This document shows, in pieces, positions 25,958 through 49,076 of a DNA stretch of 64,000 nucleotides. Below the pieces are notes generated by a model. It made no database searches. It was not told the origin of the DNA and was given only the letters and a program-made list of their open reading frames with translations. Positions within the stretch are counted from its first letter, which is position 1. Each line of letters opens with the position of its first letter. Made by a program: the position numbers and the translations under genes. This DNA is from a virus: IMG/VR virus record IMGVR_UViG_3300014501_000012, positions 1 through 64,000 of that record; one strand, 5' to 3'.

Positions 25958-28261
25958 GTGGGTGAGTCCTTGAAGAACCGTTTCGGTCAGATCGACGAGC
26001 AGGGTCGCATCGTCGCCCTCGTCGCCGAAGGCCTCCCGGCATGGCCGGACGACGGCAACCTGTCGGAGTTCACCGACGAGCAGCTGGCCGAGGTCGAGGC
26101 GGCTCTTCTCACCGAGAGCGCCGAGATCATGGGTGCCGGCGACGATGCCGACATCGATCGGGCGGAGCAGATCGTCGAGCGCGTGGGTGCTCTTCGCACC
26201 GAAGCCGCGACCCGGATGGCCGCGGCCGACGAGCCCGAAACCAGCCCTGAGCTGGAGGAACTGGCGGCCCTGAGCGACGAGGACCGTGCGGCCGTCGTCC
26301 AGTACGCAGCCGACGTGGCCGCCATCCCACCGCCCGCCGACGAGGACGCCGCCCTCGCCCGCCGGCGCGACGCCCTCGCCCGCCTGGGCGACCTGACCCC
26401 GCCCCCGGCGCCGGAACTCCAGGGCCTGAGCCACGAGGCCGCCGCCTCCTACGCCGAGGCAACCGCCGCTGGCATGGCCCGTGGGTTTGCCCCCGTGGTC
26501 GAGGCCCTGACCACGGCCGCGACCGCCCTGGCCACGGCCAACACCCCGCCCGCCCCCGGAACGACCATCACCGCCCGCGAGCTGGGGCGCTACCGTCCCT
26601 CGCAGTTCGCTCCGGCCGCCGGGACCCCCGAGGCCCCGCGTCCCCGCGGCCATCTCGTCCACCGAGGAGATGTCGCCGGGATGGCCATGGGCGCTGAGTT
26701 CACCTCGATGCGCCAACTGGTCGACGCCTTCGTCACCCGCCACCGGACCATCGGCCAGTCGGCGGCCGAGGACGAGCAAGTCCTGATCGCCTCCTACCAG
26801 CAGGACGACCCTCCGCCCGAGCGCGACCTCCGCCACATGAGCGACAGCCGCGAGGTGCGCCAGATGATCGACCGGGTGGTGGGACCCGATGCCATGGGCC
26901 GCGACCCGTGGAACCTCAGCCGGGAGGTCCCGATCAGCCGGGGCGGCATCGCCGTGACCGACTCAGAGGCCCTGGTGGCCTCCGGGGGCCTGGCCGCGCC
27001 GGTCGAGCCGTACTACCCCCAGCTGGTCCTCGCTGTCTCGGACCGCCCGGGGCTCGGATCGATGCCCGGGTTCATCACCGAGCGCGGAGGCATCCGGCTG
27101 GTGCTCCCGCCCAACCTCAACACGCTGGCGAACGCCGTCGCGCCGGGGACGTTCGCCGACGGCGTGGCCGCGACCTCGACTGCCTGGACCTCGGCCACCG
27201 CTGAATTCACCGACGCCGACGTTGGGCAGCCGATCATCGGCACCGACATCCCCGCCGGGACGATCATCAACTCGGTGACCAACGGCACGACCCTCGTGCT
27301 GTCGGCGGCCACCACCGCCTCGGCCACCGGCCTGACGTTCTACCTGCCCTCGCGCAACCCGACCAACCTCGGAGGCCCCGTGGGGAAGGTCACCGCGGCC
27401 CAGGACGCGGCCGGACCGCCGAACTCGGTCAAGTTCACCTACGACGTCGCGAACGGGACGCAGGTCGAGCACGACGTGTACTCGGTCTACACGTCCCTCC
27501 AGTTCGGCAACCTGACGGCGCGGACGTTCCCCGAGCAGGTCGAGGCGAACATCCGCCTCGCCAACGCCCTGGCCGCCCGCGTCGCCGAGACGGCGATGCT
27601 GGACTACATCACCGGCTGGTCGACCCTGATCACGGCGGCCAAGACCTTCGGCACCGCCCGCCAACTGCTCGCCCAGTTCGAGCACATGGCGGCGATGTAC
27701 CGGAACAACAACCGGATGGACCCCGCCGCCGTGCTGCGTTTGGGCATCCCGGCCTGGGCGCTCAACGCCATGCGTTCGGACTACATCTCGTCCTTCATCG
27801 GGGGAGCGGAGAACTGGGGACTGTCGGACGAGGAGCTGAACTCCTGGTTCGCCGACCGCAACATCCTCCCGTTCTTCTACCTGGACGGGCCGTCGGACAT
27901 CTCCCAGCTCTTCCCGGTCATCGGGTCGGGCGCGATCAACACCGGGGGGACGAATACCGCCACCCCGGTCGCGCTGCCGGACTACCCGGGACAGGGAGCG
28001 ACGACCTCGTTCCGGACCAAGGTCGTCTCGTTCATGTGGGCCGAGGGGACGTGGCTCGGGTTGACGACGGGCGAGCTCAACATCGGGCTCGTGCGGGACT
28101 CGATCTTGAACTCGAGTAACAGATTCCGTAACTTCGAGGAAGTATGGGAATCGCCTGCGTTCGTCGGGCTCCAGTCCCTCCGCTGCGTTCACACCGTCGC
28201 CGCCGACGGCACCTACGGTGCGGCCGTGTCGATCACGCTCGGTGTCGGGTCCGGCCTGTAA
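25958..28261 (+). CDS. Major capsid (hexamer) protein with N-terminal scaffold domain
   Basis: Acidic helical N-terminus; LVASGGLAAP, RGGI and IGLVRDS.LNS.N motifs of cluster-B-like MCPs; GGAGG SD before GTG 25958. Confidence 0.85.
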   Translation: MGESLKNRFGQIDEQGRIVALVAEGLPAWPDDGNLSEFTDEQLAEVEAALLTESAEIMGAGDDADIDRAEQIVERVGALRTEAATRMAAADEPETSPELEELAALSDEDRAAVVQYAADVAAIPPPADEDAALARRRDALARLGDLTPPPAPELQGLSHEAAASYAEATAAGMARGFAPVVEALTTAATALATANTPPAPGTTITARELGRYRPSQFAPAAGTPEAPRPRGHLVHRGDVAGMAMGAEFTSMRQLVDAFVTRHRTIGQSAAEDEQVLIASYQQDDPPPERDLRHMSDSREVRQMIDRVVGPDAMGRDPWNLSREVPISRGGIAVTDSEALVASGGLAAPVEPYYPQLVLAVSDRPGLGSMPGFITERGGIRLVLPPNLNTLANAVAPGTFADGVAATSTAWTSATAEFTDADVGQPIIGTDIPAGTIINSVTNGTTLVLSAATTASATGLTFYLPSRNPTNLGGPVGKVTAAQDAAGPPNSVKFTYDVANGTQVEHDVYSVYTSLQFGNLTARTFPEQVEANIRLANALAARVAETAMLDYITGWSTLITAAKTFGTARQLLAQFEHMAAMYRNNNRMDPAAVLRLGIPAWALNAMRSDYISSFIGGAENWGLSDEELNSWFADRNILPFFYLDGPSDISQLFPVIGSGAINTGGTNTATPVALPDYPGQGATTSFRTKVVSFMWAEGTWLGLTTGELNIGLVRDSILNSSNRFRNFEEVWESPAFVGLQSLRCVHTVAADGTYGAAVSITLGVGSGL

Positions 28262-28324
28262 GCCCTCCCCTCTCGGGGCAGAGGCCCAAGCAACCACGAG
28301 AAGACGAGGGGAGGTGATGACCAG

Positions 28325-29725
28325 ATGGCAGTCCAGGAGTTCTCAGCCGTAACAGGGCTCGACTTCACCCTGGAGACTCCGGTCCCGCTGGTCTCACCGC
28401 CCCTCTCGCTCCTTGGCGAGGCCCGGTCGCTGATCGACCTGGCGGGGATGTACGCCCGCCGGCAGGCGGCGTTGGAGAAGATCCAGTCCGGGGCCGAGCA
28501 ACTCGAGGCCTACGACCGCGACGGGGTCGTGGGCGACGACGACCAGCCGGGCGAGGCAGACAGCCTCGAGGACACGGTCAAGGCGCTCGAGCAGCAGATG
28601 TCCGAGTGGACGCGTGAGTTCGAGACCTGGGACGACGGCATCGCCCGGATGCAGGGCTGGGAGCAGGCGATCCAGTACCTCCCCGAGCTGGGCAACGCCG
28701 AGTCGATGTCGGTCTTCGCCCCGGGCACGGTCCCGCCCGTCGGCTCTGCGCTGGCATCGGGTGCGACGAAGCAGACCGGGTCCAACCAGGAGCCGTTCTA
28801 CTGGTACGACCCGTTCGTCGCGGTAGGCCGCGACAGCCGGTCGCTTTTCGGGTGGCCGAACACCGACTTCGCCTCGCGGCTCCAGCGGTGCCAGCGCGCC
28901 CTCCTCGCCCACGAGTCGTGGCAGGCCGAGTACGAGTTCTGGACGGGCACACAGGTCCCGACGAACTACCACCTCTCGGCGAGCCCGAGCACGGCCGTGG
29001 TCAGTCCCCACCGGACGATCGATGCCTGGCCGAACCCCCTCGCCCCGCCCGGGACGACGCTCGGAACCCCCGAGAGCCTGAGCGACTCGCTCGCCGCCCT
29101 CGACCAGTCGATCGCCAACGCCGACGCCGGCACGGGGATGATCCACGCCTCGTGCTACCTCGTCCAGAAGTGGGCGCAGGTCTACCCGTACCTCCGGGAC
29201 CCGTCGGGGAACATCCGGACGGTGAACAACAACCTGATCGTCCCCGGCTACGGCTACCCCGGGACCGGGCCGGACCAGGCGAGCCGGTCGGTGACCGACG
29301 TGGTCACGACGGACGGAAGCCCCGACATCACCTCGGCCTCGGCCGCCTTCACGGACCTCGACATCGGCCGCCCGATCAACGAGACCGACGCCGGGGGTCA
29401 CATCCCGGCCGGCGCGGTGATCCTCACGGTGACGAGCCCCACCGCCGCCGTCCTGAGCGTCCCGGCCACGGGAGCGGCCACGGGGATCGATGCGACGCTT
29501 CCGGGGGTCGGGGGCAACGCGACGGGGTCGGTCGTCCAGTGGGCCTACGCGACGGAGATGGTTTTCCACCTCCAGGGCGACATCGTCTCGTACCCGTCCG
29601 ACCTCCGCGAGATCTCGCCGGCCTTGTACCACAACTCGGCCGACATCCGCGTCGAGCGGTCCCACGCTCTGCTCACCAACCGGCTCCTCCGGGCAGCCGT
29701 CGCCGTCGACACGTCCACCACGTAA
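28325..29725 (+). CDS. Major capsid pentamer protein
   Basis: Follows the MCP; E..FWTG, GMIHA, T..NN..V.G.GY.GTGP and WAYAT motifs. Confidence 0.7.
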   Translation: MAVQEFSAVTGLDFTLETPVPLVSPPLSLLGEARSLIDLAGMYARRQAALEKIQSGAEQLEAYDRDGVVGDDDQPGEADSLEDTVKALEQQMSEWTREFETWDDGIARMQGWEQAIQYLPELGNAESMSVFAPGTVPPVGSALASGATKQTGSNQEPFYWYDPFVAVGRDSRSLFGWPNTDFASRLQRCQRALLAHESWQAEYEFWTGTQVPTNYHLSASPSTAVVSPHRTIDAWPNPLAPPGTTLGTPESLSDSLAALDQSIANADAGTGMIHASCYLVQKWAQVYPYLRDPSGNIRTVNNNLIVPGYGYPGTGPDQASRSVTDVVTTDGSPDITSASAAFTDLDIGRPINETDAGGHIPAGAVILTVTSPTAAVLSVPATGAATGIDATLPGVGGNATGSVVQWAYATEMVFHLQGDIVSYPSDLREISPALYHNSADIRVERSHALLTNRLLRAAVAVDTSTT

Positions 29726-29737
29726 GGAGAAGCAACC

Positions 29738-30898
29738 ATGGCCACAAATGGTCCAGTGCAAATCCAAGGCTGCGCATACCGGTTCGCCCGGCTCGCGGCC
29801 GACGGCTCGATCGTCAGCTCCTCGTCGGCGATGATCCAAGACGACCGCCCGCTGGTGAAGATCGACATGAAGCCCGAGCTCGAAGAGGGCGTCGAGATCA
29901 CCCCCAAGTCGGCGTGTGGCGTCCCGGTGATCTCGTACAAGGACTGCAACCGGTACAAGCGGTGGACGATCGGCGTGACCCTCGGCGACTGGGACCCCGA
30001 GCAGTTGGAGCTCGTCGGGCAGGGCGCCGTCATCACCGCGCCGGGATCGTCCGGGCGCGCCTTTGCCGACGGCGTGGTGACGATCAACGACGCCATCGTG
30101 ACCTCCGCCGCCGACGCGGCGTTCACGGCGGACGACGTCGGGCGCCCGATCACCGACGCCGGGTTCACCGTGGCCTCGTGCACCACGGCCAGCACCTCGG
30201 CCGACGTCACGACCACGGGGACGTTCGACACTGACGGGGTCTCGGCGGGCATGACCGTGACCGGGACGGGGATCGCCACCGGGACCTTCGTCCTGAGCGC
30301 GAACTCCCAGACCGACCTCACGCTCAGCCAGCCGGCGACGGCCAGCGGCACGGTCACCCTGACCTTCTTCATCCTCCCCGCCGGGAACTACATCGCCGAG
30401 GTCTTCTCGGCGACCGAGGCCCGGATGAACTTCATCGCTCTCAAGACCGGGGCGGCCCTGACGCTCACCCTCGGATCGCAGGCGGTGTCCACGATCGGGT
30501 ACCAGTACCCGCGGCTGCTCGCCGTCGAGTGCCCGTTCGGGATCTCGATCGAGGTCTGGTCGAAGCTGATCGTGCGCGGCACCGGCTACCAGGGCACCAC
30601 GCCCTACCCCTCGGCCGGCACGGCGGAGATCCCCGGATCGGCCTACGTGCGGACCGGCATCTTCCGCGCCTTCCTCTGGCACGGAGCGCGCACGATCGAG
30701 AACAAGGAAGCCGGCCCGATGTTCGAGGGCTGGGCGATCGAGAACCCGAACTTCGGCACGGGTCCGGCCGACGACTGGCGCGTCACCGCTCTGCCGGCTG
30801 ATGGCGAGCCGGTCCCGACGATCGCCTGGTGCAACGAGATGGCGGACTTCGAGCTGCCCACTCCGCTCCAGCCCGGGTACCAGACTCTTCCGATCTGA
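29738..30898 (+). CDS. Major tail (tube) protein
   Basis: G...R.ARL.ADG, E.E.G.EI..K.ACG, DPE.LEL, IEVWS and N..FG.GP motifs. Confidence 0.75.
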   Translation: MATNGPVQIQGCAYRFARLAADGSIVSSSSAMIQDDRPLVKIDMKPELEEGVEITPKSACGVPVISYKDCNRYKRWTIGVTLGDWDPEQLELVGQGAVITAPGSSGRAFADGVVTINDAIVTSAADAAFTADDVGRPITDAGFTVASCTTASTSADVTTTGTFDTDGVSAGMTVTGTGIATGTFVLSANSQTDLTLSQPATASGTVTLTFFILPAGNYIAEVFSATEARMNFIALKTGAALTLTLGSQAVSTIGYQYPRLLAVECPFGISIEVWSKLIVRGTGYQGTTPYPSAGTAEIPGSAYVRTGIFRAFLWHGARTIENKEAGPMFEGWAIENPNFGTGPADDWRVTALPADGEPVPTIAWCNEMADFELPTPLQPGYQTLPI

Positions 30899-30927
30899 TT
30901 CCCACCAACTGATCCCGAGGAGGATCC

Positions 30928-31878
30928 ATGCCCGATTTCGCGAACCCACCCCTCTGGGCGTCCCAGCCGGTACCCGGACAGGTCCCGGTCTACGCCCCTG
31001 ATGCTCTCGTCCCGACGAGTCCCGGGGTCTACGGCGACGGCTCGGACGGTGTCGTCACGTTCGACGGGACCACGACCATTCTCGGGCTCGTACCGTCGAG
31101 CGAGGTCTACACGTTGACCCGCGACCTCTATCTGGCGGGATGCACGATCAACGCCGGGGTGACGATCATCACCGCGGGGTTCCGGATCCTCTGCAACGGC
31201 CCGGTGGTTCACAACGGCGCGATCGAGTGGAACGGGAACGCCGGGGCGCTCGGCACGGGATCTGCTGGAACCGCGGGAGCGGCTCTCACCGCTGCGATCG
31301 TCGGCGGTGCGACCGCGGGTGGCGCGGGCTCAGCGACCAACGGTGCCAACGGCGCTGCGGGGCCCGCCAGTTCGTTCGGTGGCAACGGTGGGTCGGCCGG
31401 CATCGGCAGCGGTGGCACGGCCGGGGTCCACGCCTCGGTGACTGCCATGACCGCGGCGCACGGCTCGATTCGCTCGCTCCCCAACGCCCTGCTTGCGGTC
31501 GGCCAGGCCGGGGGAACGATCTCCCAGGCGACTGGCGGCGCTGGTGGCGGTGGAGGCGGCGGTGACGCCACGAACTTCGGAGGGGGCGGAGGTGGTGGCG
31601 GCGGTGTCGTCGTCCTGATCGCTCTGAGCATCTCGGGGACCGGGACGATCTCGGCGAACGGGGGCAAGGGCGGAGGCGGCGCGACGGCCGGGAACTGTGG
31701 AGGCGGCGGTGGAGGAGGCGGCGGCCTCGTGGTCGTGGTCTCGGGAACCGTCTCGGGCGCGACCGTCGACGGGCTGACCGTCACCGCGACCGGTGGTGCC
31801 GGCGGGGCGCTCTCGGGCACGGGCTCGGCAGCCGGTTCGGCCGGGGCAGCCGGCACGGTTCTCCTCCTCGCCGCGTAA
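30928..31878 (+). CDS. Glycine-rich virion protein
   Basis: YGDGSDG N-terminus; poly-Gly GGGGGGG-VV tracts. Confidence 0.65.
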   Translation: MPDFANPPLWASQPVPGQVPVYAPDALVPTSPGVYGDGSDGVVTFDGTTTILGLVPSSEVYTLTRDLYLAGCTINAGVTIITAGFRILCNGPVVHNGAIEWNGNAGALGTGSAGTAGAALTAAIVGGATAGGAGSATNGANGAAGPASSFGGNGGSAGIGSGGTAGVHASVTAMTAAHGSIRSLPNALLAVGQAGGTISQATGGAGGGGGGGDATNFGGGGGGGGGVVVLIALSISGTGTISANGGKGGGGATAGNCGGGGGGGGGLVVVVSGTVSGATVDGLTVTATGGAGGALSGTGSAAGSAGAAGTVLLLAA

Positions 31879-31918
31879 TCACCCGCCGAAGTTCGGCACC
31901 ACATAGGATCGAGAACCA

Positions 31919-36560: not shown

Positions 36561-36910
36561 CGAGTTGGGCCCAAACGAACTGGGCGTGGATCGATTCGCT
36601 GCTCTTGGAGAAGGGGCTCAACCCGTTCGAGGTCCCCTGGCCGAGGCTGGCGAACTTCATCTTCACCCAGTGGGTCGGGAGTATCTGGGACGACGAGGAG
36701 CGAGCGGACGTGATCAAGTCACTCAGTTGGCCGGAGGACGAGATGCAGGGAGCGCAGGGGCAGGACCGGTCGGTCCGGGCCGGCGCGCAGGCGCTCGGGC
36801 TGAACCCCGACCAGATGGTGGCCAACGCGTGGGAGCAGCGCCAGCTCGCGCTCCAGCGCAAGGCGGCGACTGAGGGCATGGCGGCGCGGGCCGAGGAGCC
36901 GACCGGGTGA
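36509..36910 (+). CDS. Tail assembly chaperone extension (T, -1 frame)
   Basis: Overlaps G in the -1 frame; W....W..ID...L.KG motif; precedes the tape measure. Confidence 0.6.
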   Translation: MDRGGHHGRPWEGVQLLTSWAQTNWAWIDSLLLEKGLNPFEVPWPRLANFIFTQWVGSIWDDEERADVIKSLSWPEDEMQGAQGQDRSVRAGAQALGLNPDQMVANAWEQRQLALQRKAATEGMAARAEEPTG

Positions 36911-39900
36911 CGATCGTCGGCGAGGGGATCATCTGGCTCAGGCCGTCGACGGCGGGCTTCGCCGAGGAGGCCGAGGGCAAGCTCAAGTCCTCGCTCGCGT
37001 TCTTGGGCGGCGGGAGTTCGGTCGTGGGCGGGATCGTGGCCGGGACCCTCGCGGCCGGCGCGGCCGTCACCATCGTCACGGCGAAGATGGCGATGGACTT
37101 CCAGAGCGCCGAGGCCAAGCTCTCGGGAACCGCGGACATCTCAGCGAAGGCCGCGGCCAAGATCGGGACGGCCTTCCTCAACACGATGGGGTCCTCGGCG
37201 TTCTCCGGCGAGACCCTTCTCAAGGCGTACACCCCGGTCTCGGCCCAACTCGCCCGGGTCGAAGGCCGGACCCTCTCGGCCACGCAGGCGACCCGGTTCA
37301 TGGCGGTCGCGTCGGATCTGGCGAAGGCCTCGGGTAAGGATCTCAACACCTCGACCTCGACCCTCGCCCAGACCTTGTTCACGTTCGGCATACGGACGAA
37401 GGACGCCGCGGGCGCGGCGAACCTCCTCTTCAACGCCGCCCGGATCACGAACACCCCGATCGACTCCCTCTCGAACATCATCGACAAGCTCCACGCGAAA
37501 CTCGGGACCCTCGCGCCGACCTTGAAGGACACGGCCTCGATCATCGCCCTCCCCTCGGTCGCCGCGCTCGGGAGCCGCGGGGCGATGCAGGTCAGTTCCG
37601 CCCTCGAGCACCTCCTGACCCAGGCGTCGGCGACCTCGTCGGGGATCACGAAGGCCGTGACCGCGGCCCAGGCGAAACTCACGACGGCGAGCGCCGACGT
37701 CGCCAAGGCCCAGCTCAAACAGCAGCAGGCCCAGGAGGAGGTCACCGCGTCGGGGACGAACACCCTCGCCCAGCAGATCAAAATGTCAAACGCCCAGGAC
37801 GCGGTCACCGCGGCGGTCGGGAAGCAGACCCTCGCGCAGCAGGCCCTCACCGCGGCGCAAGGGGACAACGTCGCGGGATCGACCCAGGCCAAGGCGCTCC
37901 TCGACCAACTCGGCCTGTCGTCCCTCTACGTCCACGGGAAGTTCGTCGGGCTCCGCGAGGTCATCGCGACCTTGGGCCCACGGCTCGCGGCGATGACCGA
38001 GCAGAATCGGAACCTCGCCCTGCAAACCCTCTTTGGGACCGGCGCCGCTCAGGTCATGGGGCACGTGCTCGCGGGTGGCGTGACCGCTTTCGACAAGTCC
38101 ACGGCGGCGGTGTCCCGACACAACGCGCTCGCCCACGCGGCGGCGGCGATCGCCAAGACCCTCTTCGGACAGCTCGACGTGCTCCGGGCGTCCGTCGAGG
38201 ACGTCGCGGTCAAGCTCGGACAGATGCTCCTCCCGTACATCCAGAAGTTCGTCCACCTTCTGACCGAGGGCTTCGGGTGGGCGTTGAAACACAAGGAGGT
38301 GATGATCGCTCTGGCCGGGGTTCTTGCCGGCATCGTTGTCGGCTCACTCATGGCCGTCGCAGCGGCGTTGCTCGCGGTCGACGTCGCCGGGCTTCCGATC
38401 TGGTTGATCGCCGCCGCGATCGCCGCGCTGGCCGTGGGCGTGTTCGAGGCCTACAAGCACATCCCGGCTTTCCGGGACGAGGTCCACAAGCTCGGCGACG
38501 ACATCAAACGGATCAACTGGAAGGACGTCGAACGGGACGTGAAGTCCTTCGCCAAGGTCGTGGGCAAGGATCTGACCGAGGCCTTCCGCGACGCCTCGGC
38601 GTGGCTGAAAGAGGGGATGAAGATCTTCGACGCGCTCCCGGGTCCGCTCAAGGACATCGTCTCGCCGATCCTCGGGATCGTCGTCGCCGTGAAATTCGTT
38701 GCCCAGCACTGGAAGGCGGCCTTCACCGATATTGACCACGCGACACGGGACTTCGTCGGCGGTCTCGAGGCCGCGTGGCGGGACTTCCTCGACCCGATCG
38801 TCCAATGGGTCGTGGATTTTTGGCACTCGCTCGTGAACTTCTGGCACACCTACGGCGGGGAGATCACCCGGATCACCCGCGGGCTGTTCGGCCTGATCGA
38901 ATCCGTCGTCCGGACCTTCATCCACGTGACGACCGACATCTCGAAGGCCCTGTTCGACCTGCTCATCCCGATCTTCCGCGCCGGGTGGGCACTCGTCAAG
39001 GGCGTCTTCCAGGCGGCCTGGGACTTGATCGTGGGCGTGGTCAAGGTCGCGTGGCGGACGGTCGAGGGCGTCATGGAGGTGGCGAAGGACGTCGTGCTCG
39101 GGATCTTCGAGATCTTCGTCTCGCTCCTGACCGGGCACTGGTCGAAGGCCTGGAAGGCGCTCGTCCATATGGTGGTCTCGGTCAAGAGCGACATCGTCAA
39201 CGCAGCCAAGGGCGTCCTCGAGGCCGTGCTCAACGCCGTCGGCCGGGCCGCCCTCGATCTCTACAAGGGGGCGTTCGCTGCGGGGAAGGATCTGGTGATG
39301 GGATTGTGGAAGGGGATCAAGGAGGCCGCGCATCTGGCGACCGACGCCGTGAAGTCCGTCGGCCACGGGATCCTCTCGGCGGCCAAGTCCGTGCTCGGGA
39401 TCTTCTCGCCCTCGATCCACTTTCAGGAGTACGGGAAGGGAACCATGCAGGGCCTGGCCAAGGGGATCCGGGACAACGCGAACCTCCCCCAGGCCGAGCT
39501 CAACAAGCTCAACCTCCACATCGCACCGAAGGACAAGCAGAAGGCGGTCGACTGGTTCAAGGACGTCGCCAAACTCGCCAAGCAGAACCACGAAAGCGCC
39601 GGATCAGCGGCCGGTCAGCTCGCCCACCTCTTCGGCGCCGGCCCGTCGGGGTCTGACGCGGCGAAGAAGGCTGCGACCCAGCTCAAGCAACTCACCGAGG
39701 CGATCACACTCCGCAAGTACCTCCAAGCGATGGCCCACCAGAACCACCAGGATGTGACGGCCGGGAACAAGACAAGCCGCGACGGGTCGAGCCAGGTCGG
39801 CAAGCACGTCGACATGGCATCACTCCACGCGATGACCAACCACCGTCAACTCCTCGACGAGCAGAAAACTCAGACGGCGATCCTCCGCCAGTTGAAGATC

Positions 39901-40005
39901 GACGGGGAGAAGCCGAAGAAGATCACGATCAAGGGGATGCCCGGAACGACCACGGGGGCCGGTAGCAACGCGGTCGGGGCGATCGCTTCGGGGACGATCC
40001 GATGA
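36907..40005 (+). CDS. Tape measure protein
   Basis: 1032 aa Ala-rich helical protein with Trp/Phe 11-mer repeats; LGIFSPS motif. Confidence 0.92.
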   Translation: MTIVGEGIIWLRPSTAGFAEEAEGKLKSSLAFLGGGSSVVGGIVAGTLAAGAAVTIVTAKMAMDFQSAEAKLSGTADISAKAAAKIGTAFLNTMGSSAFSGETLLKAYTPVSAQLARVEGRTLSATQATRFMAVASDLAKASGKDLNTSTSTLAQTLFTFGIRTKDAAGAANLLFNAARITNTPIDSLSNIIDKLHAKLGTLAPTLKDTASIIALPSVAALGSRGAMQVSSALEHLLTQASATSSGITKAVTAAQAKLTTASADVAKAQLKQQQAQEEVTASGTNTLAQQIKMSNAQDAVTAAVGKQTLAQQALTAAQGDNVAGSTQAKALLDQLGLSSLYVHGKFVGLREVIATLGPRLAAMTEQNRNLALQTLFGTGAAQVMGHVLAGGVTAFDKSTAAVSRHNALAHAAAAIAKTLFGQLDVLRASVEDVAVKLGQMLLPYIQKFVHLLTEGFGWALKHKEVMIALAGVLAGIVVGSLMAVAAALLAVDVAGLPIWLIAAAIAALAVGVFEAYKHIPAFRDEVHKLGDDIKRINWKDVERDVKSFAKVVGKDLTEAFRDASAWLKEGMKIFDALPGPLKDIVSPILGIVVAVKFVAQHWKAAFTDIDHATRDFVGGLEAAWRDFLDPIVQWVVDFWHSLVNFWHTYGGEITRITRGLFGLIESVVRTFIHVTTDISKALFDLLIPIFRAGWALVKGVFQAAWDLIVGVVKVAWRTVEGVMEVAKDVVLGIFEIFVSLLTGHWSKAWKALVHMVVSVKSDIVNAAKGVLEAVLNAVGRAALDLYKGAFAAGKDLVMGLWKGIKEAAHLATDAVKSVGHGILSAAKSVLGIFSPSIHFQEYGKGTMQGLAKGIRDNANLPQAELNKLNLHIAPKDKQKAVDWFKDVAKLAKQNHESAGSAAGQLAHLFGAGPSGSDAAKKAATQLKQLTEAITLRKYLQAMAHQNHQDVTAGNKTSRDGSSQVGKHVDMASLHAMTNHRQLLDEQKTQTAILRQLKIDGEKPKKITIKGMPGTTTGAGSNAVGAIASGTIR

Positions 40006-41123
40006 ACAGCGCCGGCTACCCGACCTATCTGGTCAACGGCGCGGTCTCGGTCAACAGCGGGGTCGCCGACGAGAACGGGTCGTTCTGGTACCTCGACGGG
40101 GAGATCGCCGGGTGGGACTCGCCGGACATGCGCCAGACGATGCTCACGCGGATCGGCAACACGCCCTCGGCCGACGGGGAGATCGCGGCGGACAACCACT
40201 ACCGCGGCCGATCGCTGGTCTTCACCCTCATCGCCGAGTGCGCGTCCGAGGCCGCCCGGGAAGCGTCTCGCCTCCTCCTGGCCGGCGCGCTGGACCTGAT
40301 CAGCACCACCGGGACGTTCCTGGCCGAGGAGGTGATCCCCAAACAGGTCTCGATCATCCGCTCGGGGAACTCGAACCAGGGCAAGCTTGTGATGACCGAC
40401 TGTGGCTTCGCCATGAAGAACGCCACCGAGGCCCTGTCGCGCACCGTCACCGATGCCGTGACCACGGGCAGTTCGGAGAACCTGGTCAGCGCGTCGGCGA
40501 ACTTCGGGACGGGTGACATCGGGCAACCGGTGACGGGGACGAACATCCCGCCCGGCACCGTGGTCGTCTCGATCACGTCCACGATCGAGGTCGTGATGTC
40601 GAACGAGGCCACCGCGTCAGGGAGCGACCAGACGGTGACGATCGGCGGGTACCCGGGCTTCCCCGTCGGGACCGTCGTGTGGCTGCTCAAGGCCGAGATC
40701 GAGATCTACGCGCAGGACCCCCGGAAATACTCGCCCGTCCCCAACGAGGCACCGTTCGAGTCGAACGTGGCGATGGTGACGAACGAGGGGAACACCGCCA
40801 CCCAGAACGCGGTGATCACGATCGAGGTGACCGGAGGCGGGGACGGTCCGTTCCACATCGAGATCGTCAGCGTCGCCGACATGGAGTTGCTCGTCCCCCC
40901 GCTCCCGGCCGGCGCGCCCGCCCTCGATCCGATCCCGACCGAACTCGTGGTCGACCTCTACAACAAGACCATCACCGACGGGGAGGAACGCAGCTACTAC
41001 TACCTGCGGAACCTCCAGACCCCGTGGCTCACGATTCCCCCGGGGGTCTGGGCGGTCTCGATCAGCGGGGCGGGCGGCAGCAACATCCCCGGGAGCGTCG
41101 TCAGTTACTCGGCGTGGATCTGA
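40002..41123 (+). CDS. Distal tail (Dit-like) protein
   Basis: Follows the TMP; GWDSP, A.DPRKY, VTNEGN and W..IPPG...YSAWI. Confidence 0.8.
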   Translation: MNSAGYPTYLVNGAVSVNSGVADENGSFWYLDGEIAGWDSPDMRQTMLTRIGNTPSADGEIAADNHYRGRSLVFTLIAECASEAAREASRLLLAGALDLISTTGTFLAEEVIPKQVSIIRSGNSNQGKLVMTDCGFAMKNATEALSRTVTDAVTTGSSENLVSASANFGTGDIGQPVTGTNIPPGTVVVSITSTIEVVMSNEATASGSDQTVTIGGYPGFPVGTVVWLLKAEIEIYAQDPRKYSPVPNEAPFESNVAMVTNEGNTATQNAVITIEVTGGGDGPFHIEIVSVADMELLVPPLPAGAPALDPIPTELVVDLYNKTITDGEERSYYYLRNLQTPWLTIPPGVWAVSISGAGGSNIPGSVVSYSAWI

Positions 41124-41126
41124 TCC

Positions 41127-42575
41127 GTGGCCCGCGTCCGCGTCAACAACCAGTTCGGGTTTCTCGGGGCTGACCCCGGTATCAGCGGAACCACGCTGAC
41201 CTTCGGCGCGGCCCCCGTTCCCCCGTTGCCCACCCTCACTGGCGAGGACTACATACCGTTCACCCTTGACGCTCTGTCTGACCGGTTCGAGATCGTTCAC
41301 CTGGTCGCGCCCTACACGTCGGGAGATCTGACCGGGCCGATGGTGCGGGAGGCCGAGGATGCCGTCAACTTCCCCGCGGTCGCCCACAACCTGCCGGCGA
41401 CGTGGAAGGCGTGCCCCACGGCCCTCGACTACAGCGCCACGATCTTCAACGTCCTCTACTACGGGGCCGATCCGACTGGGGTGAACGACAGCACTGCGGC
41501 GTTCCAGGCGGCGATCAACGACGCCACGGCCAACGCTGGGTCAGACGCGCTCGGTCCGGTCTACGTGCCAGCCGGCAAGTACAAGATCAGCGGCACGCTC
41601 ACGGTGGAGAACGTGATCGGGTTCCGCATCTACGGGGACGGTAAGTGGCTGACGTTCATTCAACCCACCACGGCGCTCGCGGGTCTGGCCGTGTTCAGGC
41701 TCCAGGACTGTGACTCCCCGGCGTTCGAGGAGATGAACGTCGCCGGGAACTCGAGCGGCGCACCGCTTTACCTGCTCCAGTTCAACGTTGGCAACCCGAT
41801 CCTGCTGGTCAACACCCGGGCCTTCGTCAAGAGCGTGTTCTTCGGATCCTCGAGCGCCGGGAGTGCGACGAACGGGATCGCGTGGACGACATCGGGACCG
41901 GACGACAACAACGATCAGTCGGTGGTTCTCGACTGCGACTTCTACAACATGACGAACGCCTACTACATCGGGCACTCGAACTCCGAGCAACACACGTTCA
42001 TCGGCGGCACCACGAATGTGACGGGGGCGACCGTCCTCTGCGCCGGGGGTGGGTACAAGATGATCAGCACGGTCATCATTAACACCTCGGGGACGATGTT
42101 CGAGTTCGGGGCCGGGACCTACCGGCGCGGGACGGAGATCATCGGGGTCAGCTCAGAACAGTCCGGCGCCTGGGTGAACGCCGTCACGGGGGCGATCGGA
42201 CTCAACCTGCGGATGGTCGGGTGCGTGTGTGACGGAGCACCGGCCAGCTCGACGCCAATCAACTTCGAGGCGGACATCACGTCCCACTTCCGGGCGACCA
42301 ACTGCGATTTCGTCAGCGGGCAGACGGGAACGATCCTCAACTTTCCCACAGCGGCTCTGTCGTCGTTCACTGACTGCACCCTGGACTGCTACTCGATCAC
42401 CTTCGACTCGGCGCTGAACCTAATCGGCAACCTGTTCCTCGCCGGAAACGTGACGATGACCAACGGCGGTTCGGGGGTCTATCTGGGATTCGCCAACACC
42501 GGGGGCAACGTGCCGGACAGCGACCTGAGCGCAGATGATCTCATCGCTCCCTTCCTCAACCAAAACTACTTCTAA
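41127..42575 (+). CDS. Tailspike with pectate-lyase-like beta-helix
   Basis: FNVLYYGADPTGVNDSTAAFQAAIN...VYVPAGKYKI. Confidence 0.8.
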   Translation: MARVRVNNQFGFLGADPGISGTTLTFGAAPVPPLPTLTGEDYIPFTLDALSDRFEIVHLVAPYTSGDLTGPMVREAEDAVNFPAVAHNLPATWKACPTALDYSATIFNVLYYGADPTGVNDSTAAFQAAINDATANAGSDALGPVYVPAGKYKISGTLTVENVIGFRIYGDGKWLTFIQPTTALAGLAVFRLQDCDSPAFEEMNVAGNSSGAPLYLLQFNVGNPILLVNTRAFVKSVFFGSSSAGSATNGIAWTTSGPDDNNDQSVVLDCDFYNMTNAYYIGHSNSEQHTFIGGTTNVTGATVLCAGGGYKMISTVIINTSGTMFEFGAGTYRRGTEIIGVSSEQSGAWVNAVTGAIGLNLRMVGCVCDGAPASSTPINFEADITSHFRATNCDFVSGQTGTILNFPTAALSSFTDCTLDCYSITFDSALNLIGNLFLAGNVTMTNGGSGVYLGFANTGGNVPDSDLSADDLIAPFLNQNYF

Positions 42576-43001: not shown

Positions 43002-43525
43002 TGAGCGACGGGATGGCTGGGAACGTGGGTGACGGGTTCTCCATCGAGCCACCGTTCCCCAACACCGAGCCCGTGTACCAGGGCGTTCTAACGCTCGACC
43101 CAACGTCCGAGACCTTCCTCCGCTGGTCGCCGTTCCTCGCGCTGCCCCCACAGTTCCAAACGTTGACAGCCAACGGGGCGGTCACGATCGACGCGGCGAT
43201 GGGGGACGTCATCGTCAACCTCGAGGCGAACGCCACGAGCACTACCATCGTCAACTCGCTCTACAACGAGGACCAGTATCCAGGGTACTCACCGCGGCCG
43301 GGTCAACTCCTGAGGGTCACCTTCGTGCAAGATGCCACGGGTGGCCGCACCTACGCGTGGCCCTCCAACTGCGCCTTCGGCGCGGGCGTGACCACGACGT
43401 CGCCGATCGTGACCGTCGCGGCGGGAGCACCCACCGACACGGTGGCCCTCTCTCAGACCTCGGTCCTGTTTCGTTGGGACGGGACCACGTGGCAGGAGAT
43501 GTCCAGAGCGGTGAGCGTCGGGTAG
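43001..43525 (+). CDS. Minor tail/fibre protein
   Basis: QDATGGRT..WP...FRWDGTTW motif. Confidence 0.6.
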   Translation: MSDGMAGNVGDGFSIEPPFPNTEPVYQGVLTLDPTSETFLRWSPFLALPPQFQTLTANGAVTIDAAMGDVIVNLEANATSTTIVNSLYNEDQYPGYSPRPGQLLRVTFVQDATGGRTYAWPSNCAFGAGVTTTSPIVTVAAGAPTDTVALSQTSVLFRWDGTTWQEMSRAVSVG

Positions 43526-45699
43526 TGCCCTTCGGTACCGATCCCCACGGGGACGCTCCCTATGGCGACTCGTCCTCGGAGGGGGCGGTCTTCCCGAGCA
43601 TCGTCACCGACGACGCGCTGACGACCGACTCGTGCGGGGGTGGAGTGGTGCTGGCGCGCCCGACCACCGACACGGCCCTGACTACCGACACTCTGTTCGA
43701 TCACGCCGTCTCGGTGAGCGACACGGCCCTGACCACGGACGCGGTCGGGGTGGGGAAACACTTCGCACGGCTCTCCCCGGACGTCTCGTACACGACCGAC
43801 GGGCTCCTCGGTCCGATCGTCTTCGTCTCGGTCCGCTGCCTGACCCGCGTCGTGGTCTCGGTCGCTTGCTACCGTCCACTCCCGCCGCCCCAGCCCGTCC
43901 CCGGGCCGAGCGGTCTGCACGACTATGAGGTGATCACCTGCGACCAGTTCGGGGTCGCCTACGGAGAGATCGTCACGGCCGTCCCGACTCAGATCGACTG
44001 GGACCTTGACGACCTCGGATCGGTCCTGATCGACATCGACATCCTCGACCCGAGCCTCTTGAACCTCCTCCCGCAGTCGGCGATCCCGGCCGTGCGTGAG
44101 ATCCAGATCTGGCGCGACCAGTCGTTGATCTTCTGGGGCCTCCCGATCTCGGCCACCTACGACGCGTCACAGGTCCACCTCACGTGCTCGGGCCATCTCT
44201 GGTTCCTCTCCACGAGGAACTTCGGCCCGGTGATCACCGAGTACCTGACCAACCCCCAGTTCGAGCAGGGCTTCCTCGATTGGGTCCCGGTCGGGGTCAC
44301 GAGTTCGATCGAGGACGCCCGGGCCGGCGGGATCGTGGCCCTCGGTCGGTACGCTGCGCGGCTCACCCAGTCCAGCGCCAACGAGGACACGTACATCCAC
44401 CAGATCCTCACCGGGATCTCCGCGCCGCCAGAGGAGTCGACCTTCTTCGACCTCGCCGCCTGGCTCTACATTGACCCCGCCTACGCGTCCCCCGGACCGG
44501 CGCTCGACCAGCGCGGGCTCTTCATCCAGTCGGTCATCGGATCGACCGTCCAGGACTTCGAGTTCGAGACGATCACGGCCTCGACCGTCATCGGTCAGTG
44601 GGTGCGTTTGGAGACGGGGATCCTCGTCGAGGCCGGGACGACGGTGGACCTCGACATCCGGCTCTACGCGCCGGGGGGTTCGGTCATCTGGGACGCCGTA
44701 CAACTCACGGTCGAGGAGTCGGTCGGGTCGACGCTCGCGGGCTCCGATGTCTATTTCATCATCCTCGAGATCCTCCAGTACGCCCAGGACCCGACACGCG
44801 GGAAGTCCAACGTGAACCTCCCCGTGATCGGAGCGAACACAGGGGTCGTCCTCCAGCGCAACTACCAGTTCTCGGACAACGGCGGGATCCTCGACGCGCT
44901 CAACGAGTTCCCCACGATCGGCGCGTGCGACTTCGAGGTGACCTACGACGAGACCGGTCACTTCCGCGGGTTCCAGGTGTTCTCCCCGGCGAAGGGCTCG
45001 GTCAAGTACAACGCGGCGATCGAGATGGACCTGGGCCAGGTCACCGACCTCCAGGGCGCGGTCGACGGCTCGCAGGTGGGGACGGCCGTCCGATACCTCG
45101 GCCAGGGCTCGACCGGTTCGTCGGCCGAGATCGGGTTCGCCAACTTCCCCTGCTATCTGGGTGGGCGTGTCTCGGGCGTCGCCGTCCTCGTCCAGGGATC
45201 GACCACGGCCCAGGCGGGCGACATCGACTTCACCGCCCTCGACGTAGGACAGGGGATCTACTGCCAGACCCCGGGGGTGATCCCCGTCGGGACGGTCATC
45301 GTCGAGGTCCTGAGCGCGACCGAGGCCGTGATGTCGAACCCATCGGCGATCACGGCCAACCCCTCGGTGATCGGTATCGGCGGGATCATCATCGACTCCG
45401 TGCAATCGGCGATGCCCGACCAGATGATCGACACCCTCCAGGCCTCGGCCGAGCAGATGTTGGCCCTGACCCAACGCCCGCAGAACCTCCCGACGCCGAA
45501 GATGCGCGCCGACGGGCCGGCGGGACTCTTCGGGAAAGTCGAGACCGGTGACGTCCTCCCGGTGATGTTCAACTACGGCTGGTGTACCTTCGGCCCGGTC
45601 TACATGCGCCTCGTGACCCTGACCCTCTACCCACCGACCGAAGAGTTGGAGTTCACCTTGAACCTTCCGGGGACGCTCTCGACCGTGGGGGGTGGCTGA
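43525..45699 (+). CDS. Baseplate hub/Tal-like minor tail protein with inserted carbohydrate-binding module
   Basis: REIQIWRD...FWG; LTNPQFE CBM; GDV..V motif; N-terminal D.ALTTD repeats. Confidence 0.7.
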   Translation: MPFGTDPHGDAPYGDSSSEGAVFPSIVTDDALTTDSCGGGVVLARPTTDTALTTDTLFDHAVSVSDTALTTDAVGVGKHFARLSPDVSYTTDGLLGPIVFVSVRCLTRVVVSVACYRPLPPPQPVPGPSGLHDYEVITCDQFGVAYGEIVTAVPTQIDWDLDDLGSVLIDIDILDPSLLNLLPQSAIPAVREIQIWRDQSLIFWGLPISATYDASQVHLTCSGHLWFLSTRNFGPVITEYLTNPQFEQGFLDWVPVGVTSSIEDARAGGIVALGRYAARLTQSSANEDTYIHQILTGISAPPEESTFFDLAAWLYIDPAYASPGPALDQRGLFIQSVIGSTVQDFEFETITASTVIGQWVRLETGILVEAGTTVDLDIRLYAPGGSVIWDAVQLTVEESVGSTLAGSDVYFIILEILQYAQDPTRGKSNVNLPVIGANTGVVLQRNYQFSDNGGILDALNEFPTIGACDFEVTYDETGHFRGFQVFSPAKGSVKYNAAIEMDLGQVTDLQGAVDGSQVGTAVRYLGQGSTGSSAEIGFANFPCYLGGRVSGVAVLVQGSTTAQAGDIDFTALDVGQGIYCQTPGVIPVGTVIVEVLSATEAVMSNPSAITANPSVIGIGGIIIDSVQSAMPDQMIDTLQASAEQMLALTQRPQNLPTPKMRADGPAGLFGKVETGDVLPVMFNYGWCTFGPVYMRLVTLTLYPPTEELEFTLNLPGTLSTVGGG

Positions 45700-46277: not shown

Positions 46278-46280
46278 CAC

Positions 46281-47348
46281 GTGGGTAACTTCACCGTCTA
46301 CACGACGTCCGACCTCAACACCTGGACGCAGCAGACCACCCCGGCCGACAGCGCGTCCTTCCCGCAGGCGCTGTGCATCTCCGAGGGCGCCGGTCTTTTC
46401 GTCGTCGGCGGCCGTGGGTTCGGGGCCGTCACGGGCCCCCCGATCATGTATTCGTCAGACGGGGTCACGTGGAACTTCCCTAGCGGAAGCGGGTTCACCT
46501 CGACCGACCTGGTGGAGGCCATCGCCTGGAACGGGAGCTTGTTCGTCGCGGTGGGGAACTTCGGCCCGAGTGGGTACACGGCGGCCACCTCCCCGGATGG
46601 GATCACCTGGACGATCCAGCCGGTGGGAACGTCGGGCAGCACCTGGTCCTGGCTTGCCTGGTGCGCGGGCCCGGACATCTTCATGGCCTGGGCGACTGAT
46701 CCGGGTAACGCGTTCACCTCCCCCGATGGCGTCACCTGGACGGCGGTGCCAGGAGCCCCTACGTACATGAACGGTGGATTCACCTGGGACGGGTCTGGTC
46801 TCGGGGTGTGGGGGAACTCTTACAGGGGAGGAGGTGCCGCCGGCACCACGGACACCACGACCTTCGCCGTCATCGGTGGGCTGGCTCTCAACCTATACAC
46901 GGAGGCGGTCGGTTGGATCGGCGGCCAGTGGGTACTCACGGGGCCAAACTTCGACGGCCCCACTCTCCCTTCCGTGCAGATATCTCCTGACACGCTCACG
47001 TGGACAGCGGTAGCGACGCCCATGGACGGGAACCAGTTCCCCCGGAACGCAGTAGTCGACGGGGATGGCCTCGCGGTGATCCTGGCCACGGGAGCCAACT
47101 TCGGCGACATCACCTGCATGAGCAGTTCGGACGATGGCGCTAGCTGGTCGTCCCACTACTCCCCCTTCGACTATCCGGGGTCAGGCGGGAGCAACAGCTG
47201 CAGGGATGCCCTCTGGACGGGGACCGAGTGGATCGTGGTCGGGTTCGTCCGATCCCCGGCCCCTCCGCCGGTCATCCCCTGGCACGTGGGCCAGGTCGGC
47301 TTCGGAGCGAACACCGGGACCGACTGGCTGGTGGGGGTCAACCCCTGA
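46281..47348 (+). CDS. BNR/beta-propeller tail protein
   Basis: Repeated SPDG.TW motifs; WNGSLFVAVG. Confidence 0.7.
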   Translation: MGNFTVYTTSDLNTWTQQTTPADSASFPQALCISEGAGLFVVGGRGFGAVTGPPIMYSSDGVTWNFPSGSGFTSTDLVEAIAWNGSLFVAVGNFGPSGYTAATSPDGITWTIQPVGTSGSTWSWLAWCAGPDIFMAWATDPGNAFTSPDGVTWTAVPGAPTYMNGGFTWDGSGLGVWGNSYRGGGAAGTTDTTTFAVIGGLALNLYTEAVGWIGGQWVLTGPNFDGPTLPSVQISPDTLTWTAVATPMDGNQFPRNAVVDGDGLAVILATGANFGDITCMSSSDDGASWSSHYSPFDYPGSGGSNSCRDALWTGTEWIVVGFVRSPAPPPVIPWHVGQVGFGANTGTDWLVGVNP

Positions 47349-47377
47349 TCCTCAGTGCCAGGTCTATGCTCAGCGCC

Positions 47378-47812
47378 GTGACCCCCAAGAACTCCGCGGA
47401 GGGCGACGGCGAACAAGGCCTCGTATCGGCTCCCCTCGACGAGCCTGACGCGGACGGGGGCACGGAGGAGGATGCCGCGGAGGGCGCGGACCCCGCGGCT
47501 CAGCCCACATCAGATCCCCCGGTCGATGACGGGCTTCAGGCCGAAGAGGCTCCCGATGCCGTCGAGGAGCCGGCGGAATCCGCGCCCGCGGTGTCCTCCG
47601 AGCCCGACGAGGGATCGATCCAGGTCCCGCTCAACGCTGACGGCGTGGGGTCGGTGCGCGTCCCGGTCAACTGCATGGAGATCCTCGACGTCCGCGGCGA
47701 CGGGATGCGGACCTGCACCTGGAACTCCGTCCCCCGCCACCCCGAGCTGACCCGCGTCACGCTCGCGGGCGAACCCTTCGCTACGATCTCGATCACCGTC
47801 CTCACCCGATAA
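47378..47812 (+). CDS. Acidic disordered protein with small beta domain
   Basis: Leaderless TATGCT-7nt-GTG start. Confidence 0.55.
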   Translation: MTPKNSAEGDGEQGLVSAPLDEPDADGGTEEDAAEGADPAAQPTSDPPVDDGLQAEEAPDAVEEPAESAPAVSSEPDEGSIQVPLNADGVGSVRVPVNCMEILDVRGDGMRTCTWNSVPRHPELTRVTLAGEPFATISITVLTR

Positions 47813-47823
47813 GGAGAACCCGA

Positions 47824-48543
47824 ATGTCCGACACGACAGGAACACCCCCAGCAGGTTCGCAGCCCCTCGCCGGCCCACCGGGCTCCGACCCGACCGAAGC
47901 CCTGACCGGAGCGGGCAAGCCCGCCGAGGGCGCGCCGGAAACGATGGCGGCCGGCCAGCCTCCAGCGGGCGACGGGGTCGAGTCCCTGACGGGATCCGGA
48001 GCCCCGGCCGAAGGCGACGGACTGGCGGACGAGCCGGCGGATCCGGCCGAGGTCGAGGCGCTTGAGGTCGACATCCAGACCGACGCCGAGGGGACCGGGT
48101 GGGAGATCATCGACGAGCCCCTCGCCGGCCTCGTGGCGACCCTCCCCGCCGGGGAGCAGGGGTCGGTGGCTCTCACCGCCCCCGAGGGCGACCCCGAAGG
48201 CAAGGAGTCGGCGTGCGTGACGGTGACCGGGGCCGCGCCGAACTCGGTCGTGATCGTCACCGTGACCGAGGGCGAGACGCCCCCGGCCCTCCCGCCCCAA
48301 CCCGAGCCCGTCCCTGCAGGCGGAGTCCACACGATCCAGGACAACGTCACCGACCCGGAGAACCCGCGCACGGTCCAGGCCGAGGGCATCACCGTCCAGG
48401 ACAACGTCTCGTGGGCCGACGAGGAGAAGGAAGAGGACCGGGTCCTGACCGAGCGCACCGTCCAGGCCGACGGGACCACGAGCGACCACCGACCCCTTCC
48501 GCCCGTCGACGCCGACGAGGAGCCCGCCGCCGAGGACGAGTGA
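47824..48543 (+). CDS. Acidic disordered protein, paralogous to the previous gene
   Basis: AAGGAG SD; internal repeats. Confidence 0.6.
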   Translation: MSDTTGTPPAGSQPLAGPPGSDPTEALTGAGKPAEGAPETMAAGQPPAGDGVESLTGSGAPAEGDGLADEPADPAEVEALEVDIQTDAEGTGWEIIDEPLAGLVATLPAGEQGSVALTAPEGDPEGKESACVTVTGAAPNSVVIVTVTEGETPPALPPQPEPVPAGGVHTIQDNVTDPENPRTVQAEGITVQDNVSWADEEKEEDRVLTERTVQADGTTSDHRPLPPVDADEEPAAEDE

Positions 48544-49076
48544 GCACCACCATCGTCGTCCTGGGGCTCTGGACCCCACCGGGCGGCGCGGTCCCTCCCG
48601 ACGGAGAGATCACCTTCCAGCTCGACCAGGACCTGATCGACCTCGCGACGGGCGAGACGATCTTCGCCCAGACCATCCCGTCACCCCTCGTCCTCGGGGC
48701 CATCGCCCAACCCCTGGTGGCGAACGACGCCGGGGTGAGCCCGACGAACAGCCAGTACCGGGTCGACGAGAACCTCCTGGGCGCGCCGGAGCAGAGCTAC
48801 TACGCCACCGTCCCGGCGGTTCCCCCGGGCTCGCGGTCGATCACCGACGGGGCGATGACGGTCGGGTCACAGATCCTCGAGTCGGCCACGGCCAACTTCA
48901 CCAGCGCCGACGTGGGGGCCTTCCTCTTCGCCCCGTTCCTGCCGATCGCGGTGACAGTCCAGTCGGTGATCGACTCCGCCCACGCCTCGCTCACGAGCGC
49001 CCCGAGTGAGAATCTTTCGAGCCTGCCGGTCCTGATCGGGGCCTCGGTCCTGCTGTCGGCTATCCGGCCGACGTAG
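48540..49076 (+). CDS. Structural protein carrying the shared beta module
   Basis: G.ITF...L.AND...P....YRV.E motif; GTGA overlap. Confidence 0.6.
   Translation: MSTTIVVLGLWTPPGGAVPPDGEITFQLDQDLIDLATGETIFAQTIPSPLVLGAIAQPLVANDAGVSPTNSQYRVDENLLGAPEQSYYATVPAVPPGSRSITDGAMTVGSQILESATANFTSADVGAFLFAPFLPIAVTVQSVIDSAHASLTSAPSENLSSLPVLIGASVLLSAIRPT

Follow-up and report, generated by a model that had tools for sequence, protein, structure and literature searches.

A ~69-residue module recurs in six structural proteins of an uncultured soil phage and is homologous to a phage capsid decoration domain

Seven module copies in the structural gene block

The structural gene block of an uncultured soil phage, IMG/VR record IMGVR_UViG_3300014501_000012, encodes six proteins that carry copies of one ~69-residue module, the subject of this analysis. 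The record is a single contig of 84,831 bp, rated 100% complete, and the window analysed here is its first 64 kb (positions 1 to 64,000), with a guanine-plus-cytosine (GC) content of 65-69%; cultured phages gave no DNA-level match to this phage. The structural genes all lie on the + strand. They begin with the capsid protein (25823-28261), a 466-aa protein (28325-29725, hereafter g28325), a 386-aa protein (29738-30898) and the connector genes, which include an adaptor (phrog_783), and continue with a tape measure candidate (36907-40005), a 373-aa protein (40002-41123), a spike (41127-42575), a hub-like protein (called start 43525) and a 178-aa protein (48540-49076).

The module occurs in seven copies, in the capsid, g28325, 386-aa (tail tube), 373-aa (candidate distal tail protein, Dit), hub-like and 178-aa proteins. 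A first-pass annotation, made from the letters alone, had described a common motif in six virion proteins; all six segments translate to that motif in their host frames, and the limits it gave fall within a few codons of those drawn by profile. We built a profile hidden Markov model (HMM) from five copies and used it to search the whole 84,831-bp genome, cut into 1422 six-frame pieces. The five training copies were recovered by construction. The tube protein, which stood outside the training set, was recovered too and matched as one whole copy flanked by an N-terminal and a C-terminal half. With each training copy left out in turn, the copies were recovered in the capsid protein (residues 442-509; 27146-27349; E = 3.3e-13), g28325 (residues 321-393; 29285-29506; E = 1.1e-14), Dit (residues 147-215; 40440-40649; E = 1.6e-15), the hub (residues 548-619 of 724; 45166-45384; E = 9.7e-9) and the 178-aa protein (residues 99-167; 48834-49040; E = 2.4e-6). 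The tube protein scored E = 2.4e-9 to 7.6e-6 across the five runs, and the best unrelated piece 0.3 to 1.6. The HMM check proposed in the first-pass annotation thus sets left-out copies at E = 2e-6 to 2e-15 against a background of at least 0.3.

A deeper profile of 22 copies, which includes copies from relatives, marks eight stretches in the same six proteins and nothing else under E = 1.9 in the six-frame genome. In the tube protein these are the N-terminal half of an outer module (profile positions 1-36; 30056-30166; E = 1.9e-8), a complete inner module that interrupts the outer one in its beta3-beta4 loop (30161-30370; E = 1.6e-15) and the C-terminal half of the outer module (profile positions 31-69; 30353-30475; E = 2.3e-6). 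The carriers are exposed-type virion proteins only, and no other frame of the genome matches this profile. Amino-acid identity among the copies is 14-46%, and their DNA similarity, which the first-pass annotation had already called diverged, is confined to patches of 13-69 nucleotides at 71-100% identity; on these values we judge the copies to be old. The same annotation had proposed that one domain was fixed repeatedly, and its presence in several unrelated virion proteins agrees with this.

Insertion sites in head and tail proteins

Aligned with module-free homologs, the module appears as a clean in-frame insertion in five of the six proteins, namely capsid, g28325, tube, Dit and hub. In the 178-aa protein (48540-49076, + strand) it occupies residues 99-167, at the C-terminal end, and is a C-terminal fusion instead of an insertion; the earlier description of copies lying internally between core motifs, as clean insertions, therefore holds for five carriers and fails for this one. 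The 178-aa protein has no Pfam or PHROG match, and a module-bearing ortholog is present in a related IMG/VR contig (G004).

The capsid gene (25823-28261, + strand) is an 812-aa open reading frame (ORF) with a long N-terminal region. It matches the major head protein family phrog_777 (E = 1.9e-42) and, by tblastn with 29-34% identity, the "major capsid hexamer protein" known from phages of Arthrobacter, Gordonia and Microbacterium; 25 phage records are matched, 22 of them annotated as major capsid or major head protein. By sequence similarity, we assign it firmly as an HK97-type, hexamer-type major capsid protein. Residues 224-452 and 533-797 align to residues 204-409 and 413-655 of Mimi gp81, with ~80 residues (453-532) standing where Mimi gp81 has 3, and because the flanks align to near-adjacent segments these ~80 residues replace three.

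The second head-region protein, g28325 (28325-29725, + strand; 466 aa), belongs to phrog_779 (function unknown; E = 7e-10), and its position between the capsid and tube genes is conserved in Mimi, GodonK, A3Wally and DSL-LC01; a tblastn search with it against cultured phages gave no match. Its multiple alignment has a clean ~95-column gap at the module in Mimi gp82 and in the metagenome protein P0096, with conserved blocks on either side and support from BLAST. The insertion site varies within this family: P0096 (504 aa) carries three modules nested in one another at residues 66-286, near its N-terminus, whereas the module of g28325 lies near the C-terminus. Structure-based leads from Atlas point to capsid-protein families (feature scores 0.87-0.90, TM 0.38-0.40) and are leads only, which makes the protein a pentamer candidate. 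BLASTP finds the module as the sole part shared with the capsid protein, and four hhalign comparisons of the remainder with the capsid core gave probabilities of at most 0.2%, from alignments so shallow (5-8 rows) that an HK97 fold would still be compatible with them.

The 386-aa protein (29738-30898, + strand) is, by its predicted fold, a tail tube protein. Its AlphaFold2 model (predicted local distance difference test, pLDDT, 87.4) matches the tail tube proteins of JBD30, 8xkn, Chi, YSD1 and Mystique in Foldseek (E = 2e-7 to 4e-5, probability 1.00), and VIA returns JBD30 (Z 11.0), YSD1 (Z 9.9) and many further tube and Hcp entries. In an alignment with GodonK gp78, residues 1-99 and 242-351 pair with gp78 residues 1-98 and 96-192. 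Since these segments adjoin in gp78, the 142-residue double module is an insertion at a single point, which in the model comes after a helix (87-94). The two halves of the outer module (103..249) together match the decoration protein structure 8ECI, discussed below, at Z 12.0 with a root-mean-square deviation (rmsd) of 1.4 over 73 residues; as the split halves still superpose on it, the nested architecture is predicted to fold.

A module stretch is present in all 73 tube-family homologs (P0158-P0230), the window-like nested layout in 21 of them (P0158-P0178), with P0222 similar. Within this family identity is 41-53% in the modules and 61-62% in the cores. Natural tube proteins with a single module are about 317 aa long, and module-free ones 217 aa. 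One loop of the tube module, beta3-beta4, behaves as a hot spot, holding a second module in 21 of the 73 homologs and ~100 residues unmatched by the profile in P0225 and P0230; other double forms occur in P0189, P0194, P0208 and P0222. We also observed that the inner tube copy (30161-30370 in the window, and its counterpart in L002) shares a variant with the copy in a 1219-aa fibre-like protein of the related contig G002 (L003:4158-4370), in which additional residues precede the conserved Gly and a V-A-G-M-type motif occurs, and all three group in a tree. This likeness hints at transfer between fibre and tube genes.

At the tail tip, the Dit candidate (40002-41123, + strand; 373 aa) follows directly after the tape measure gene and weakly matches the minor tail protein family phrog_5577 (E = 5.5e-4). 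Its G002 ortholog has no module, nor do 20 of 22 family homologs, some of which are 64% identical over the first 139 residues; the module is otherwise found only in P0270 and P0291. The hub/tip candidate (P0240; 43525-45699, + strand; 724 aa as called) is named from gene order and a weak match to the minor tail protein family phrog_1885. It has an ortholog in G002 (45% identity), and its module is present in 27 of 30 non-self homologs, with P0267 and P0269 aligning on both sides of the site without it. Sequence searches of the PDB with hub and Dit found nothing beyond the module. Thus, among the host names given in the first-pass annotation, those of capsid and tube are borne out, and those of pentamer, Dit and hub are held more weakly. 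In the called N-terminus of the hub (43525-43900) a short peptide motif rich in Thr and Asp (T-A-L-T-T-D-like) occurs several times, and a longer, 780-aa ORF upstream of the called start looks like an out-of-frame read.

In each of four related IMG/VR contigs, with capsid identities of 62-71%, the capsid, g28325 and tube proteins have the module, and the Dit, hub, small-protein and fibre copies vary among them. G002 has copies in its 1219-aa fibre-like protein and hub and none in Dit, the G004 counterpart of the 178-aa protein bears one, and the nested tube copy is common only to the window and G001. In four cultured distant relatives (Mimi, GodonK, A3Wally and DSL-LC01), no module was found in this gene block. 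From this pattern of presence, the core insertions are old, and gains and losses have gone on since. The module could also be a near-neutral passenger, a domain that spreads through unusual loop tolerance without benefit to the phage, as the recurrence of self-nesting (in the tube homologs and in 8 of the best 150 matches outside this phage), the other ~100-aa inserts in the same tube loop and the shifting site in the phrog_779 family would suggest. We consider this highly improbable, because the capsid, g28325 and tube copies are intact even in relatives with a capsid identity of 62%, and the tube copy in all tube homologs examined, and because every copy has kept its frame open and matches the profile strongly, which argues for purifying selection.

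Among the neighbouring genes, the tape measure candidate (36907-40005, + strand; 1032 aa) is labelled from its size, position and weak similarity to the long ORFs of relatives. The pectate-lyase-type tailspike between the Dit and hub genes (41127-42575, + strand; Pfam PF12708, E = 1.4e-14) carries no module, though pectin-lyase-like proteins of other phages have the module fold. Directly after the tube gene lies a 316-aa Gly/Ala-rich protein (30928-31878) with runs of up to ten Gly and no Pfam or PHROG match. Upstream of the capsid gene, a 1331-aa protein (20418-24413) matches the "head decoration" family phrog_2647 (E = 3.6e-6) and the "head protein" family phrog_1220, and on these matches it may be a head fibre instead of a tail fibre. 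A diverged module copy had been suggested in the fibre at ~22372-22612; we reject it, as the 22-copy profile gives nothing there at E <= 10 and hhalign a probability of 1.7%. The fibre-like protein of the window has no homology to the module-bearing 1219-aa protein of G002.

Fold, composition and wider family of the module

We show homology of the module to the N-terminal domain of gp7, which decorates the capsid of Arthrobacter phage Bridgette. A profile of six copies (positions 4-68) matches residues 11-74 of PDB 8ECI chain 1, "Decoration protein", at E = 7.2e-10, the one solved structure matched by the module profile, and single host proteins match it as well (Dit 7.6e-4, g28325 6.1e-3, capsid 2.6e-3). 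An AlphaFold2 model on the 22-copy alignment is a six-stranded all-beta domain (pLDDT 98.3), whose top match is again 8ECI both in Foldseek (TMq 0.84, rmsd 1.6 over 69 columns) and in VIA-align (Z 10.4, rmsd 1.2 over 66 residues; next row Z 6.9), at 32-33% identity. The module is thus predicted to be an independently folding ~69-residue six-stranded beta-barrel, and the structure prediction that the first-pass annotation had proposed as a check on a common fold speaks for one. That annotation had also implied that the module was without precedent, which no longer stands given the homologous domain in 8ECI and the recurrence of the fold in phage fibre and spike models.

A second tier of VIA matches (Z 4-7) is made up mostly of accessory barrels from the spikes, tips, tubes and capsids of phages, although values below 8 may reflect a common arrangement only. 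It includes residues 105-177 of the Mystique tube (Z 6.0) and, at Z 4-6, the VP1 capsid and the P22 I-domain; chance arrangements can reach scores such as that of the solved P22 I-domain (Z 4.1, rmsd 2.5 over 67 residues). No Pfam family, Ig-type models included, matches any of the six carriers at E <= 0.1, and no immunoglobulin (Ig)-type entry appears among the listed Foldseek and VIA fold matches, which would still be compatible with a distant relation. Together with the barrel model, this agrees with the earlier view of the module as distinct from Ig-like domains.

Across the 22 copies, F22 is the sole invariant residue and G28 is nearly invariant. The 491 module residues of the window are 50% Ser/Thr/Ala/Gly, 26% Ser+Thr, 2% Lys+Arg (one Lys), 8% Asp+Glu and 5% aromatic, and the host proteins contain 4-6% Lys+Arg, except for the small 48540 protein (2%). 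Such a lysine-poor, hydroxyl-rich and mildly acidic layer might act as a shield or camouflage that guards conserved surfaces against proteases, sticking to soil particles and host surface defences, and the presence of the module on nearly all exposed components would suit this role. However, the composition may simply follow from a high-GC genome and a beta-rich fold, and we regard a shield as improbable. The Ser+Thr content could instead mark the modules as glycan acceptors, that is, as sites of virion glycosylation. Virion glycosylation is known in mycobacteriophages, and GodonK, a distant relative, encodes two glycosyltransferases among its structural genes. This proposal is hardly credible here: the complete genome has no match to Pfam Glycos_transf_2, Glycos_transf_1 or Glyco_tranf_2_3, making phage-encoded glycosylation unlikely on these three families, and the module is a well-folded barrel, not a flexible tail.

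Outside this phage the module belongs to a very large family. A search over 1.84 billion cluster representatives returned 3369 at E <= 1e-3 and 882 at E <= 1e-10. Within the best 150 of the 3369, a list biased to multi-copy proteins, 148 have 2-13 copies each, and nesting is seen in 8. Only three of ten clusters looked up had an organism name, and these were proteins of Acidimicrobiales, Micromonosporaceae and Planctomycetota metagenome-assembled genomes (MAGs). SBBP and IPT/TIG names or domains appear in the named clusters and the Pfam scan, in SBBP and IPT/TIG repeat proteins of Acidimicrobiales; the Micromonosporaceae and Planctomycetota MAG members are hypothetical proteins. Most matches in BFVD are to proteins labelled as tail fibre, tail collar, pectin-lyase-like or virion structural, along with a 126-aa Arthrobacter phage protein like gp7. 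Seven proteins (P0004, P0006, P0008, P0009, P0010, P0012 and P0021) form a metagenome family of ~800-1000 aa with four tandem modules and one distal; of the members scanned, P0004 and P0006 have no Pfam match, and P0004 no PHROG match.

No Pfam or NCBIfam model matches the module, whether in the six carriers or in outside proteins (10 compared with Pfam, 6 with NCBIfam), and PHROG matches to it are incidental only. A single-module tblastn against cultured phages gave one partial match, the search being too insensitive to serve as a census. A limited, word-based literature search found no paper on the module as a family or on its multi-protein distribution, which cannot show that none exists. 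A tree of the 22 clade copies and 70 outside copies (a random sample of 231 full-length stretches, with P0095, the window's own cluster, dropped) was poorly resolved; three groupings looked stable, comprising the hub copies, the single tube copies, and the inner tube copies with the G002 fibre copy. Because of this poor resolution, and because many of the "outside" sequences may themselves come from phages of this clade, we did not use the tree for claims on origin.

The homology to gp7 also raises the question of whether the modules work as a structural brace or lattice, in which they would contact neighbours or each other and stabilise capsomers, tube rings and the tip complex like cement or insertion domains. 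Parts of the preprint on Bridgette (10.1101/2022.09.09.507160) describe gp7 as binding in dimers round the pentamers at the five-fold vertices, and passages of PMC8718954 describe the external domain 2 of the YSD1 tube, likewise inserted after helix alpha1, as folding onto the adjacent subunit and stabilising the ring. The retention of the capsid, g28325 and tube copies in all four relatives, and of the tube copy in every one of its 73 homologs, is in line with bracing, as are the capsid and tube insertion domains (Mystique tube, VP1, P22 I-domain) among the VIA matches, although at such Z values a common arrangement may suffice. In contrast, the modules diverge faster than the cores, Dit copies are missing from most homologs, the second, nested tube copy would lie further out from the ring, and the module forms long tandem arrays in non-virion proteins. 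We therefore rate bracing as rather unlikely, though a serious rival and the chief alternative, and surface decoration or weak adhesion is favoured over it.

A putative decoration layer and its relation to known systems

The accessory domains of phage particles are credited with adjusting where a particle sticks and how stable it is, and few families of them have been defined. Overall, the explanation we hold to be probably the best, with moderate confidence, is that a gp7-like, insertion-competent barrel serves as a surface decoration layer. The small domain tolerates splicing into loops, its own beta3-beta4 loop included, and this small size and loop tolerance probably explain its in-frame insertion into five proteins and its fusion to a small one. 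Inserted domains are small, have close termini and fold independently, according to passages of a 2026 survey (PMC13114784), which fits the module. The copies would project from the outer face of head and tail, perhaps several hundred to a thousand on each particle, and form an accessory layer, whose likeliest job would be, tentatively, weak multivalent sticking to polymers of the host envelope or matrix. Adhesion is favoured by comparison with Ig-like domains, and because the family occurs as tandem arrays in surface-type proteins and is present on fibres and spikes.

A more far-reaching version, which we consider unlikely, would place one insertion-competent barrel on nearly every exposed protein as a uniform coat of about a thousand knobs, so that the whole virion acts as a low-affinity binder of cell wall or matrix with Hoc-like adherence, self-nesting lengthening the knobs into rods. 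As rules of thumb, a tail measures ~1.5 A per tape-measure residue and ~4 nm per six-subunit ring, and a genome of such size goes with a triangulation number of T=7 to 9. On these, we estimate ~900-1000 modules per particle, ~400-540 on the head and ~460 on the tube.

Several observations weigh against a decoration layer with an adhesive role. The copy number depends on the rules of thumb just given, and exposure was modelled for the tube protein alone. A PDB sequence search with the capsid core found nothing beyond the module and no solved homolog on which the insertion site could be placed. At least the Dit copy is dispensable, since 20 of 22 Dit homologs are without it. With only F22 and G28 conserved, no common ligand site is visible, which weakens any claim of specific binding, and aromatic residues are few. 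Moreover, the bracing by YSD1 domain 2 at a comparable site and the gp7 dimers fit a structural role, and the picture of the wider family comes from a multi-copy-biased list with few named clusters. The module marks a very large family in phage and bacterial surface proteins, the one solved member of which had not been recognised as a reusable domain. The natural module-free versions of Dit and hub are ready-made comparisons for testing the function of the coat, and tolerance of loop insertion and self-nesting may make the domain a useful display scaffold on capsids and tails. The case shows how phages reuse one surface add-on, of putative role, across head and tail proteins.

Promiscuous accessory domains on virion proteins are already known, and one homolog of the module is solved. 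What is new here is a large family without a Pfam or NCBIfam match, carried by six proteins of one virion, with loop insertion, recurrent self-nesting at one loop and natural presence and absence among orthologs. Bridgette gp7 is the closest comparison, sharing sequence profile, fold and a place on the virion surface of an actinobacteriophage. However, gp7 is a free-standing 126-aa protein forming dimers round pentamers, whereas the module here is a domain within structural proteins, five times as a loop insertion and also on the tail. Five of the six carriers, with the module inserted in core structural proteins, thus fall outside the class of free-standing decoration proteins of the gp7 type, and only the 178-aa protein could belong to it.

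The Ig-like accessory domains resemble the module as small beta domains on many kinds of virion proteins. Examples are Big_2 on lambda gpV and T5 pb6, Big_1 on YSD1 and FN3 on SPP1 gp17.1* (Fraser et al. 2006, cited in PMC8718954), and passages of PMC8718954 describe such domains as C-terminal additions that are usually dispensable, protrude outward and are proposed to bind cell-surface carbohydrates weakly. The module differs in being mostly an internal loop insertion, in nesting within itself and in occurring on six proteins of one virion; also, Ig-like domains are two-sheet sandwiches with Pfam models, and the module is a 69-residue, six-stranded barrel in its model and has no Pfam match. 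Domain 2 of the YSD1/Chi/JBD30-type tubes, which the tube core of the window matches best, is likewise a beta domain after helix alpha1. It is a ring-bracing beta-sandwich according to the same passages (PMC8718954), in contrast to the two nested barrels of the window tube, and at 8-12% identity and Z < 8 we make no claim of homology. Finally, Si3 of cyanobacterial RNA polymerase, as outlined in the passages of PMC13114784, offers a parallel to the nesting, being a small beta domain in a loop of its own kind (A1-B-A2). Its family and biological setting differ from those of the module, whose nesting reaches a depth of two in this phage and three in P0096.

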